This document shows, one piece after another, positions 63,297-63,347 of a DNA stretch of 64,000 nt. The stretch covers positions 5,563-69,562 of the forward strand of contig JBASCT010000025.1 of the NCBI GenBank assembly GCA_049651785.1, read 5' to 3'. Both the position numbers and the translations under genes were made by a program. Each line of letters begins with the position of its first letter. The first letter of the stretch is position 1. Source of the DNA: Minisyncoccia bacterium (GTDB lineage Bacteria > Patescibacteriota > Minisyncoccia > Phycocordibacterales > Zambryskibacteraceae). Under the pieces are notes generated by a model. The model made no database searches. It had not been told where the DNA came from and was given only the letters and a program-made list of their open reading frames with translations.

Positions 63297-63347
63297 TCAG
63301 CCACGCCCGCCCGCCCCGCATGTCGCGAGGCATTCGGGCGGGTCTCC
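63297..63347 (-). repeat. Pseudo-copy of the tRNA-Ser 5' end with a 36-nt GC-rich palindromic insertion (63306-63341)
   Basis: On the minus strand: GGAGAC, then CCGCCCGAATGCCTCGCGACATGCGGGGCGGGCGGG, then CGTGGCTGA. Two hairpins follow, then the real tRNA. Confidence 0.6.

Follow-up and report, generated by a model that had tools for sequence, protein, structure and literature searches.

An intact tRNA-Ser(GCT) gene lies on the minus strand at positions 63168-63255 of the window, the 64,000-nucleotide stretch of DNA analyzed here, and is recognized both by ARAGORN and by Rfam (RF00005 tRNA, 57.5 bits). Upstream of it on the same strand, 41 nt from its start, lies a displaced fragment of its own 5' end, split by a GC-rich palindromic element. 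Read on the minus strand from 63347 to 63297, the feature runs GGAGA, CCCGCCCGAATGCCTCGCGACATGCGGGGCGGGCGGG, CGTGGCTGA: the left part of the fragment copies tRNA-Ser nt 1-5 (63343-63347), the palindrome occupies 37 nt (63306-63342), and the right part copies nt 6-14 (63297-63305), both copies being identified by sequence and by a split-pattern search. Excising the palindrome in silico gives GGAGACGTGGCTGA, the exact sequence of tRNA-Ser nt 1-14. The pattern GGAGA-N(25-50)-CGTGGCTGA occurs once in the window against 0.02 expected (2 of 100 dinucleotide shuffles), an expectation that leaves out the strand and the 41-nt proximity of the pattern to its source gene. The palindrome, assigned by its fold and by a family shared with related loci and metagenome contigs, reads CCCGCCCG-AATG-CCTCGC-GACAT-GCGGGG-CGGGCGGG, with an 8-bp outer stem, a 4-nt bulge and a 6-bp inner stem; its DNA fold (-15 kcal/mol) has exactly this stem-bulge-stem architecture. 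The original prediction had parsed the feature as GGAGAC followed by 36 nt inserted after position 6, which differs only in the ambiguous assignment of a single C; the family-consistent parse is 37 nt between nt 5 and 6 (written 5/6). It had placed the fragment correctly upstream and on the same strand, at 40 instead of 41 nt, and the two further hairpins it described are real.

The first of these hairpins, GTGGCTGA-AAC-TCAGCCAC (63286-63304, minus strand), is formed by fragment nt 7-14 together with their own inverted copy (DNA fold -7.6 kcal/mol, z -5.5); a comparable inverted self-copy is present in the tRNA-Asn relic described below and at locus L162. The second spacer hairpin, ATTCGTC-TTGTAT-GACGAAT (63261-63280, minus strand; -4.8 kcal/mol, z -4.2), holds an 11-nt match to the GIY-YIG open reading frame (ORF) of the window, which 6 of 1000 shuffles reach. 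This match is not robust, as 20 of 100 shuffles reach it once all 69 ORFs are allowed. Consequently, a nuclease-ORF remnant in the Ser and Asn spacers was rejected, the shuffle-controlled search having found no robust one in either. A promoter-like site (TTGAAA-16-CATTAT, 63348-63375, minus strand; 9 of 12 positions in a consensus scan) adjoins the upstream side of the displaced fragment and not that of the intact gene. Promoter-like sites are also found upstream of displaced fragments at other loci, including Asp. The palindrome-free junction sequence at Ser is GAGCCATTATGGAGACGTGGCTGAG. A separate feature of the same gene is a 22-nt direct repeat of its 3' end (63014-63035 and 63164-63185), located beside a low-GC island.

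The window contains six tRNA genes according to ARAGORN, five of them at the Rfam gathering score; at gathering thresholds, Rfam returned tRNAs only. A palindrome-split upstream fragment precedes four of the six (Ser, Asn, Thr and Asp). The original prediction had reported four of seven; the four stand, though they are not uniform, and the total does not. The Asp locus shows the full form on the minus strand, in which a broken 5' fragment with two palindromes is followed by a nuclease gene and then by the intact tRNA. Sequence comparison identifies the fragment as a displaced copy of tRNA-Asp nt 1-28 (38964-39052), with a 32-nt palindrome at 9/10 (39012-39043) and a 28-nt palindrome at 21/22 (38971-38998). 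The nuclease gene (38719-38958, 240 nt) encodes a 79-aa GIY-YIG protein (Pfam PF01541, E=2e-12), and its last 9 nt and stop overlap the intact tRNA-Asp(GTC) gene (38654-38728; ARAGORN and Rfam), the stop codon being U8-A9-G10 of the tRNA. Upstream of tRNA-Asn, on the plus strand, comparison with that tRNA reveals an ORF-less relic (3779-3882) whose copy spans nt 1-24. It is ordered as nt 1-9, a 32-nt palindrome at 9/10 (3788-3819), nt 10-16, a second hairpin, TTGGTAGA, and an inverted acceptor-strand copy (TATCGCGGAA). The Thr case, on the minus strand, is a truncated tRNA-Thr(GGT) comprising nt 1-28 (36182-36279), with a nested 68-nt palindrome at 21/22 (36189-36256). It ends two bases 5' of tRNA-Thr(CGT), a different gene from the source of the fragment, and in the syntenic loci L001 and L006 tRNA-Thr(GGT) is intact at the position of the truncated copy. 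Two 36-nt palindromes of the same family are located in frame within protein genes on the plus strand: one in the C-terminal tail of rpoB (30411-30446; rpoB confirmed by Pfam) and one near the N-terminus of another gene (44805-44840), whose product has a prepilin-like GFSLVE motif, read by eye, and no Pfam hit. The window holds seven to eight palindromes of the family, and an identical palindrome 32-mer is common to the window and to loci L007, L008, L037 and L050.

Members of the palindrome family are 28-40 nt long and combine the fixed CCCGCCCG/CGGGCGGG outer stem and the 4-nt bulge with a variable inner stem. At least four of five inner-stem pairs are kept in 69 of 88 distinct copies, which include at least six different stem sequences. 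Related loci contain 86 family copies in 1.16 Mb, compared with 2 in shuffled sequence, and metagenomes contain at least 128 copies in 120 contigs, about 103 of which are listed near neither a tRNA nor a nuclease gene. The conserved hairpin with compensatory changes and the many dispersed, near-identical copies are properties of elements of the RPE (Rickettsia palindromic element), REP or MITE kind. Survival in frame inside protein-coding genes is a property of the RPE type: among the copies listed, the length is a multiple of three in 30 of 33 palindromes inside long ORFs versus 31 of 82 outside. No target-site duplication was found at Ser, Asn or Asp, where excision restores the tRNA sequence exactly and leaves no duplicated bases, and the flanking bases are biased only slightly, towards T(-2)/A(+2). 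One palindrome is inverted between L020 and L048, and L030 and L043, whose proteins are 86% identical, carry different palindromes at one site. In MAFFT alignments, the palindrome class does not follow the protein tree (19 of 46 nearest neighbours, 16.3 expected), and co-evolution of nuclease and palindrome type was rejected for want of a signal. The palindromes behave as an independent dispersed element.

Inside tRNA-like sequence, 70 palindromes were counted in 80 related loci and the window, and all except one lie on the strand of the matching tRNA. Insertion occurs at 9/10, at 13/14 or at 21/22, the D-loop/D-stem junction, in 66 of the 70; sites seen elsewhere include the anticodon loop, the T loop and the tips of other palindromes. 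The tRNA-Ser palindrome is a positional outlier, since it sits at 5/6 in the acceptor stem, and the D-arm of tRNA-Ser differs as well. The original prediction had proposed a systematic mechanism in place of chance, with insertion points clustered at D-stem boundaries, and both ideas are borne out by the low expectation for the split pattern and by these counts. Confinement to the window, which it had named as counter-evidence, is not what was found: because the pattern extends to related loci and to ORF-less cases in unrelated metagenome contigs, far beyond the window, that objection fails. Three aspects had been missed, namely the tie to the 79-aa GIY-YIG gene abutting tRNA genes, the nature of the palindrome as a dispersed family that also reaches the rpoB tail and in metagenomes lies mostly away from tRNAs, and the outlying position and target of the tRNA-Ser case.

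The nuclease family comprises 486 loci in the genome collection, of which 80 were fetched, all from Patescibacteria metagenome-assembled genomes (MAGs). The protein of the window is 100% identical to that of a Minisyncoccia MAG. Its catalytic residues (Y5, Y15, R24, R25, E28, H29 and E61) are invariant across 31 homologues, and a GIY-YIG catalytic domain with conserved catalytic residues is characteristic of the homing endonuclease or mobile-ORF class. The AF2 model (pLDDT 93) predicts a beta-beta-alpha-alpha-beta-alpha-alpha order; neither sequence nor model contains a separate DNA-binding domain, and the catalytic domain makes up the whole protein. The nearest structures are UPF0213 (1YWL, E=7e-8; 1ZG2) and Slx1 (6SEH, TM 0.70, 30% identity), not I-TevI or the Seg enzymes, and no NCBIfam or PHROG model matches the family. 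A second, divergent GIY-YIG subfamily also occurs at tRNA genes, with a different hairpin family (xCCGAC...GTCGGx). The nuclease family is essentially absent from viral contigs, with 13 weak matches only, and phage carriage was rejected on this ground. Gene callers run the palindrome and the nuclease ORF together. Unusually long predicted proteins were considered as C-terminally tailed products of Ser- or Asn-linked cassettes, but this was rejected: their extra length is at the N-terminus, where the gene call extends too far, through the palindrome.

The linkage of nuclease gene, tRNA gene and broken copy was quantified for 82 nuclease ORFs in the 80 fetched loci (of 486) and the window. A same-strand tRNA gene follows the nuclease ORF in 74 of the 82; the remaining eight lie at the end of a contig, continue into a broken tRNA copy, have reversed geometry or contain Ns. 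The stop codon coincides exactly with tRNA nt 8-10 in 36 ORFs. A strict palindrome is present in the broken tRNA copy in 71 of the 82, and most others have degenerate palindromes. In 63 cases the displaced fragment is on the upstream side, in 7 on the downstream side. An ORF set against a conserved host gene, accompanied by a duplicated piece of that gene, is the arrangement known from mobile ORFs. The same holds for the sporadic distribution: at least 12 tRNA species are targeted (including Asp, Thr, Ala, Phe, Ile, Val, Lys, His and Arg), some MAGs carry two cassette loci, and stacked fragments, tandem ORFs and ORF-less relics are observed. In 22 of 46 comparisons, a protein and its nearest neighbour have the same tRNA isoacceptor (5.4 expected); clear switches of target also separate close proteins, for example Lys/Thr at 78% identity. 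Sharing and switches are counted as support for a nuclease gene that, to judge from these sequence comparisons, moves together with the tRNA. Of 62 displaced pieces compared, 36 match the intact tRNA perfectly. At L019, L028/L049, L013 and L080 the piece has a different acceptor stem, and full-length broken copies at L082, L070 and L079 also differ from the intact copy. Direct observation covers the anatomy of the loci, the association, throughout the phylum, of nuclease gene with tRNA and palindrome-bearing broken copy, the sites of insertion and the dispersal of the palindromes.

The preferred reading, to which a probability of about 0.55 is assigned, has two parts: the feature upstream of tRNA-Ser would be a partial copy of the 5' end of that gene, without function and split by a dispersed GC-rich palindromic insertion element, and it would descend from a mobile ORF, akin to a homing endonuclease gene, by which part of a tRNA gene is duplicated, after which the redundant copy gains a palindrome and decays. 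From the arrangement of the loci we infer a homing mechanism and an order of events. A cassette, made up of the 79-aa GIY-YIG gene and a tRNA 5' part or a whole tRNA gene, would insert at the 5' part of a resident tRNA gene. The resident 5' part would remain beside the promoter, and an intact tRNA would be regenerated downstream. The redundant broken copy would then take a palindrome at a D-stem boundary, such insertions being tolerated only in a dead copy. By interrupting the direct repeat, along with any nuclease site within it, the palindrome may stabilize the cassette; palindromes would turn over and flip in place. Eventual deletion of the nuclease gene would leave a short structured leader of fragment, palindrome and junction hairpins, presumably transcribed ahead of the tRNA and removed in 5' processing. 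The Ser, Asn and Thr copies would thus be late, ORF-less relics that once held a nuclease gene. ORF-less relics resembling the Ser case are found at L162, L118, L144 and L150, in unrelated metagenome contigs. None of about 95 cassettes is linked to Ser or Asn. Among 81 tRNAs away from nuclease genes in the genome sample, three have a nearby palindrome, all in this window, which means that ORF-less relics may arise otherwise in a palindrome-rich genome.

Several findings weigh against this account, among them the lack of a robust ORF remnant in the Ser and Asn spacers, the lack of Ser- or Asn-linked cassettes in the sample, the scarcity of palindromes near tRNAs away from nuclease genes, and the deviant D-arm and palindrome site of tRNA-Ser. 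An intact tRNA copy persists in every cassette, where it would be open to self-cleavage, and the nuclease consists of the catalytic domain with UPF0213 and Slx1 as its nearest structures. Random secondary insertion accounts poorly for the palindrome-rich broken copies, given that nearly all of them carry a palindrome and the flanks of the same loci few. As a separate matter, strain comparison yielded no empty-site polymorphism: the contigs with identical proteins are of the same strain and broken inside palindromes, and the only same-strain contigs found are identical to the window.

The closest parallel to the proposed history is found in the mobile endonuclease elements (mORFs) of fungal mitochondria, which make gene hybrids in Allomyces (atp6) and Glomus (atp6, atp9, cox2 and nad3) (PMC3630166). 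There, the mobile unit combines a free-standing endonuclease ORF (of the GIY-YIG type in atp9) with a copied host-gene end; this incoming end functionally replaces the native end, which stays adjacent as an unused duplicate (PMC3630166). Native and incoming copies can differ in sequence, as they can in the cassettes, and this points to horizontal transfer (PMC3630166). In contrast to mORFs, the Patescibacteria cassette targets tRNA genes and duplicates the 5' end, a mirror image; its ORF, 79 aa long and without a DNA-binding domain, has its stop codon within the tRNA; a GC palindrome is present in nearly every displaced copy; and the mobility of the cassette is putative, read from sequence. 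A GIY-YIG nuclease gene among tRNA genes is also known from phage T4, where the free-standing homing endonuclease SegB is encoded within a tRNA gene cluster and has a 27-bp site that includes an 11-bp conserved motif of the tRNA T-arm, so that homing can be directed at a conserved stretch of a tRNA gene (PMC2330249). SegB, however, is larger than the 79-aa proteins, has a DNA-binding part and is phage-encoded, and its gene shows no tRNA overlap, partial tRNA duplication or palindromes. The minimal GIY-YIG fold is shared with UPF0213 proteins (YhbQ/YazA-type) and the Slx1 nuclease domain. To our knowledge, these proteins have not been reported as tRNA-gene-linked or mobile.

Short dispersed palindromic insertions include the RPEs, REP/BIME sequences, the GC clusters of yeast mitochondria and the double-hairpin elements of Allomyces. 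The hallmark of RPEs is in-frame survival in protein genes, and that of MITEs is target-site duplication. Like RPE-type elements, the palindromes described here are tolerated in frame in protein genes and in RNA genes or remnants, with many near-identical copies across genomes; unlike them, they strongly prefer tRNA D-stem boundaries and occur in association with a GIY-YIG gene. No transposase that belongs to them was identified. A search of open-access papers and bioRxiv yielded no description of the GIY-YIG/palindrome/tRNA arrangement in Patescibacteria/CPR, which has apparently not been described before.

A different interpretation, possible but on balance doubtful, joins nuclease gene and palindrome into one two-part system, in which a Slx1/UPF0213-like enzyme would recognize or cut hairpin or cruciform DNA and move the palindromes. 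The tRNA-gene cassette would then be the autonomous copy and the dispersed palindromes its non-autonomous partners, and the palindrome in the broken copy would be an integral product of insertion or a shield against the element's own nuclease. Enrichment of palindromes in cassettes is more than 100-fold (in 1.16 Mb, 77 of 86 are no more than 450 nt from a nuclease gene and 9 are farther away), hardly any cassette is without one, and they insert at stem-loop junctions (D-arm, anticodon and T loops, apices of other palindromes). Among the closest structures is Slx1, a processor of branched DNA. The pairing of the second GIY-YIG subfamily with its own hairpin family points the same way. Yet about 80% of the listed palindromes have no nearby nuclease gene (in palindrome-centred contigs, not whole genomes), palindrome class does not co-vary with the protein, L063 has a nuclease gene and a tRNA with neither palindrome nor duplicate, and we know of no GIY-YIG enzyme that inserts DNA. 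An extended form is unlikely: a selfish system whose nuclease, anchored at tRNA 5' ends, breaks resident tRNAs at D-stem boundaries, where palindromes are then found, makes the cell dependent on the linked tRNA copy and mobilizes hairpins genome-wide, including in frame into rpoB. If it did exist, it would be of a kind without prior description. If the palindromes were instead REP-like or IS200/IS605-type hairpins moved in trans by a Y1 (HUH) transposase that favours single-stranded junctions such as the D-arm, the tRNA duplications would be independent and the nuclease gene a bystander or host repair factor. The seamless restoration on removal, with no target-site duplication, and the hairpin-plus-bulge architecture with compensatory inner stems would fit, and Y1/HUH transposase-like genes lie near palindromes at L036 (two copies), L118 and L152. 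Such genes are too rare, however (2 of 120 palindrome-centred loci listed, and none in the window with its seven to eight palindromes), and the adjacency of nuclease gene and tRNA in about 90% of cases would be left without account; on the loci covered, a Y1/HUH transposase was set aside as the mobilizer, and this interpretation is considered improbable.

It is also conceivable, although very improbable, that the pseudo-half and hairpins form a functional leader of the tRNA-Ser precursor, selected for folding, processing or stability. Leader and tRNA together have a predicted fold of -88.9 kcal/mol (z -6.1 versus shuffles) in which the leader can pair with the 5' and 3' acceptor strands of the tRNA, and the promoter-like site precedes the leader. 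Against this, the same palindromes occur in both orientations and at varied positions, in protein genes and intergenic DNA; no sequence except the mobile palindrome is conserved between leaders of different tRNAs; such a leader is missing from 78 of the 81 tRNAs situated away from nuclease genes; and the Ser leader matches no Rfam family. Scarcely credible is the proposal that the duplicate is an att-site scar of integrase-mediated island insertion at tRNA-Ser, or a chance similarity. As in integrase att duplications, part of a tRNA gene is duplicated, and the 22-nt direct repeat near the low-GC island is an ordinary att candidate at the 3' end of the same gene. The feature itself, unlike such duplications, is a copy of the 5' end, only 14 nt long, upstream of the gene and palindrome-interrupted, with no integrase nearby; an att scar was rejected for its wrong geometry, and chance is excluded by the split-pattern test and the three parallel cases. 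A split or permuted tRNA was rejected because a complete, uninterrupted tRNA-Ser lies downstream of a redundant, disrupted piece, and an intron-containing tRNA because the downstream genes are complete. The group I introns reported in a paper on Patescibacteria tRNAs occur at position 35/36, and the paper mentions neither GIY-YIG genes nor palindromes.

Patescibacteria have very small genomes, usually with one copy per tRNA gene. If the mobile-cassette history is true, they carry a common mobile cassette that remodels tRNA genes and consists of a minimal nuclease gene joined to the 5' end of the tRNA itself, and the same lineages harbor a hairpin element whose insertions are seamless at tRNA stem boundaries and keep the reading frame in proteins. 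This would account for pseudo-tRNA halves, odd tRNA leaders and assembly breaks in Patescibacteria MAGs, and would provide a natural case of horizontal transfer replacing tRNA genes. The 79-aa nuclease, together with defined candidate DNA substrates, offers a tractable test of domain-only GIY-YIG targeting. For annotators, the fusion of palindrome and nuclease ORF by gene callers serves as a warning. The strain of the window is present in samples SRR28011868 and SRR28002555, and its short-read contigs end inside palindromes.

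The intact tRNA-Ser(GCT) gene of the window lies at 63168-63255 on the minus strand (ARAGORN; Rfam, 57.5 bits). On the same strand, at 63347..63297, the sequence contains a split copy of its 5' end, reading GGAGA, CCCGCCCGAATGCCTCGCGACATGCGGGGCGGGCGGG and CGTGGCTGA. When the 37-nt palindrome, a member of a dispersed family of small GC-rich palindromic insertion elements, is removed, the remaining GGAGACGTGGCTGA is exactly nt 1-14 of tRNA-Ser, and the intact gene starts 41 nt downstream of this 14-nt copy. The original prediction divided the copy into 6 + 36 + 9 nt, which is equivalent, although the split used here places one ambiguous C differently. 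The pattern occurs once in the window versus 0.02 times expected, which rules out chance; an integrase scar as the origin of the 5' copy is ruled out by geometry. The palindrome folds into an outer stem of 8 bp, a 4-nt bulge and an inner stem of 6 bp (-15 kcal/mol). The two further hairpins predicted to follow the copy are present at 63286-63304, which consists of nt 7-14 of the fragment and their inverted copy, and at 63261-63280. A promoter-like site (TTGAAA-16-CATTAT) ends one base ahead of the fragment, not ahead of the intact gene.

Four tRNA genes in the window are affected, as had been claimed, but out of six rather than seven. Upstream of tRNA-Asn, the order is TCCGCGATA, a 32-nt palindrome, GCTCAGT, another hairpin, TTGGTAGA and an inverted acceptor-strand copy. 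Ahead of tRNA-Thr(CGT) stand GCGCCACCTTAGCTCAGTTGGTA, a nested 68-nt palindrome and GAGCACT, a fragment whose counterpart is the 5' end not of this gene but of tRNA-Thr(GGT). Because the syntenic loci L001 and L006 carry an intact tRNA-Thr(GGT) at the matching place (L001 2528-2602), the window copy (36182-36279) is a truncated tRNA-Thr(GGT), of which nt 1-28 are left with one palindrome nested in another. The functional gene appears to have been lost from the window genome and kept by its syntenic relative; the trinucleotide ACT is common to the deletion end and the relative's spacer. The complete form of the arrangement is displayed by tRNA-Asp, one of the four affected cases. Here, GCGGTCATA, a palindrome, GCTCAACTGGTTA, a second palindrome and GAGCACT are followed, 5 bases past the fragment, by a 79-codon ORF that enters the intact tRNA-Asp and stops at U8-A9-G10. 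This ORF encodes a GIY-YIG nuclease (Pfam E=2e-12). As a separate observation, an initiator-like tRNA-Met ending in CCA (39232-39305, plus strand; called by ARAGORN, below the Rfam gathering score) is in head-to-head orientation with the elongator tRNA-Met and lacks a pseudo-half.

The 79-aa protein is 100% identical to a Minisyncoccia (Patescibacteria) MAG protein and has 345 close relatives; mean column identity in the family is 64%, and the catalytic residues are invariant. Its structure is predicted with confidence (pLDDT 93), the closest solved structures being domain-only UPF0213 proteins and the Slx1 nuclease domain, and it lacks a DNA-binding domain. In the initial four genomic contexts, the layout of the window recurred at tRNA-Asp, Phe, Ile and Thr. 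A family scan with one genome per species gave 486 loci, and all 80 that were fetched for analysis are from Patescibacteria. A same-strand tRNA lies downstream of 74 of 82 ORFs, the other eight involving contig ends, read-through into a broken tRNA copy, reversed geometry or Ns, and the stop codon of 36 ORFs coincides exactly with tRNA nt 8-10. The strict CCCGCCCG...CGGGCGGG palindrome is found in 71/82 cassettes (nuclease ORF with a tRNA 5' part or whole tRNA), with degenerate ones in most others. Several public gene calls (proteins P0043, P0022, P0025 and P0082) have N-terminal extensions, e.g. MVPARPNG...; these are translated D-loop and palindrome, and thus annotation artefacts.

In 1.16 Mb of fetched loci, 86 palindromes were counted versus 2 in shuffled sequence. 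Flanks are tRNA-like for 70 of the 86, with strand agreement with the matching tRNA in 69 of these 70; 63 lie upstream of it and 7 downstream. The suspected clustering at D-stem boundaries is borne out by insertions between nt 9 and 10 (n = 16), 13 and 14 (n = 4) and at the 21|22 junction (n = 46). Four further insertions are in the anticodon loop; a T loop and the apex of other palindromes also serve as sites. The Ser insertion point, 5|6, is unusual. In L207, tRNA-Arg has a broken copy downstream of its intact gene (1850-2060), with one palindrome at the D-loop junction and one inside the T loop, so that insertion sites extend beyond the D-arm.

Variant layouts each have one intact and one palindrome-broken tRNA copy: intact tRNA, ORF and broken 3' copy (L016), ORF, intact tRNA and broken copy (L079, L082, L066), two broken copies (L028) or tandem ORFs (L074). 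L063 is a clean ORF-tRNA pair with no duplicate whatsoever. A second, divergent GIY-YIG subfamily also precedes tRNAs (L084 780-1260; L007 15040-15560; L024 4100-4560; upstream fragments in L019 and L083), where hairpins of another family (xCCGAC...GTCGGx and TCCCGA...TCGGGA) split the 5' fragments. At some loci, fragments of both kinds are stacked, resembling layered successive invasions. Relics, i.e., ORF-less tRNA fragments with a palindrome, of Ser-like build are found in L162, L118, L144 and L150.

The palindromes form an element of their own. Scanning metagenome contigs for them gave at least 128 copies in at least 120 contigs; among the copies listed, only 11-14 adjoin a nuclease gene, about 22 have a tRNA within 400 nt, and about 103 are near neither. 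Within long ORFs, palindrome length is divisible by three in 30/33 cases; outside long ORFs, the 32-mer dominates. In the window, 36-nt in-frame copies occur in the rpoB C-terminal tail (30411-30446), adding 12 codons 9 codons ahead of the stop, and close to the N-terminus of a prepilin-like protein, just before its GFSLVE motif (44805-44840). The palindromes have no target-site duplication; their flanks are only slightly biased towards T(-2)/A(+2). The inner stem is variable yet paired (at least 4/5 pairs in 69/88 distinct copies, with six or more stem sequences). Logan short-read contigs of the window strain end within the 32-nt palindrome by tRNA-Asp and tRNA-Asn (L086 1-30; ends of L087 and L088); thus, the repeats fragment assemblies exactly at these tRNA loci.

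Palindrome turnover is also independent of the ORF. Nearest-neighbour proteins have the tRNA isoacceptor in common in 22/46 pairs versus 5.4 expected and the insertion class in 31/46 versus 20.7, while palindrome class shows no association (19/46 versus 16.3). Loci L030 and L043, whose proteins are 86% identical, have different palindromes at one site. Two genomes have an identical 37-nt palindrome at the same D-loop site of their tRNA-Val(TAC) cassettes, but in opposite orientation (L020 5087-5123; L048 9948-9984), which suggests that the element is able to flip in place via its inverted arms.

These data bear on the main rival explanation, that nuclease and palindrome form one system. In its favour are the palindrome content of cassettes, enriched more than 100-fold, the insertion sites at stem junctions, the predicted Slx1-like fold and the separate hairpins accompanying the second nuclease subfamily. 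However, many palindromes have no nuclease gene nearby, the two components do not co-vary, and the L063 cassette is clean; one system is rather unlikely. A Y1/HUH transposase could move the hairpins, and IS200-like or RAYT-like genes are indeed found about 1 kb or less from palindromes at a small number of loci (L036 6890-7591 and 14614-15198; L118 3537-3743; L152 3015-3395), but such genes are rare in the sampled loci and absent from the window. A functional tRNA leader would fit the strong predicted fold (z -6.1), yet it is contradicted by palindrome orientation, position and distribution and is highly improbable.

The anatomy and statistics of the arrangement are direct observations, and a three-stage reading of them is most likely, for which we infer a homing step and the following order of events. 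A nuclease gene with the 5' part of a tRNA, or a whole tRNA, would be copied into a tRNA gene. The palindromic element would then strike the redundant copy at preferred stem boundaries; the same insertion in a single functional tRNA would not survive. Finally, loss of the ORF would leave relics. The closest documented logic is that of the mobile ORF of fungal mitochondria, in which an endonuclease gene moves with a copy of the host-gene end, the incoming copy substitutes for the native end, and the latter persists as an unused duplicate (PMC3630166). For T4 SegB, a GIY-YIG homing enzyme, a conserved tRNA motif can serve as the target site (PMC2330249). The displaced 5' piece holds the promoter-proximal position; in 36/62 cases its sequence is identical to that of the intact tRNA, and in several loci its acceptor stem is different. 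Broken copies of full length also diverge from the intact one. All this is as expected if the intact copy arrived with the cassette. The palindrome may be selected because it breaks the direct repeat through which the ORF would otherwise be deleted, or for destroying a nuclease site in the leftover copy.

On the three-stage reading, the Ser, Asn and Thr copies would once have contained an ORF, for Ser by analogy, given the ORF-less relics of like build elsewhere. No robust ORF remnant was found at tRNA-Ser, and no Ser-linked cassette was seen. In the genome sample, 3/81 tRNAs away from nuclease genes have palindromes, all three from this window. The arrangement resembles free-standing endonuclease cassettes with partial host-gene duplication, and the palindromes resemble RPE (Rickettsia palindromic elements) insertions. 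In the open literature (subscription journals being outside the search), nothing was found on a tRNA-abutting GIY-YIG family, a stop codon inside a tRNA or these palindromes; what did turn up concerns fungal mobile ORFs, SegB and group I introns in the tRNAs of Patescibacteria.

The 3' side of tRNA-Ser carries a separate feature. The 22-nt repeat GAATCCCTGCGTCTCCGCAACG, comprising the last 16 nt of the gene and 6 nt of trailer (63164-63185, minus strand), recurs exactly 128 nt downstream of the gene (63014-63035, minus strand). It borders a low-GC stretch (56000-63013; 0.39-0.44 versus about 0.50-0.55) that codes for a Fic protein and a type III restriction-modification pair. In appearance, the repeat resembles a usual att-type scar left by an island at a tRNA 3' end; neither a third copy nor an integrase was found within the window. 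Divergent from tRNA-Ser, a short ORF with a strong Shine-Dalgarno sequence (63466-63640, plus strand) stops after 37 codons, and coding-like sequence continues in another frame, so the ORF may be a disrupted gene. GC content drops at 63700-64000, and by eye the translation after about 63700 resembles a helix-turn-helix regulator. If this sequence-based reading is true, foreign-looking DNA would lie on either side of tRNA-Ser.
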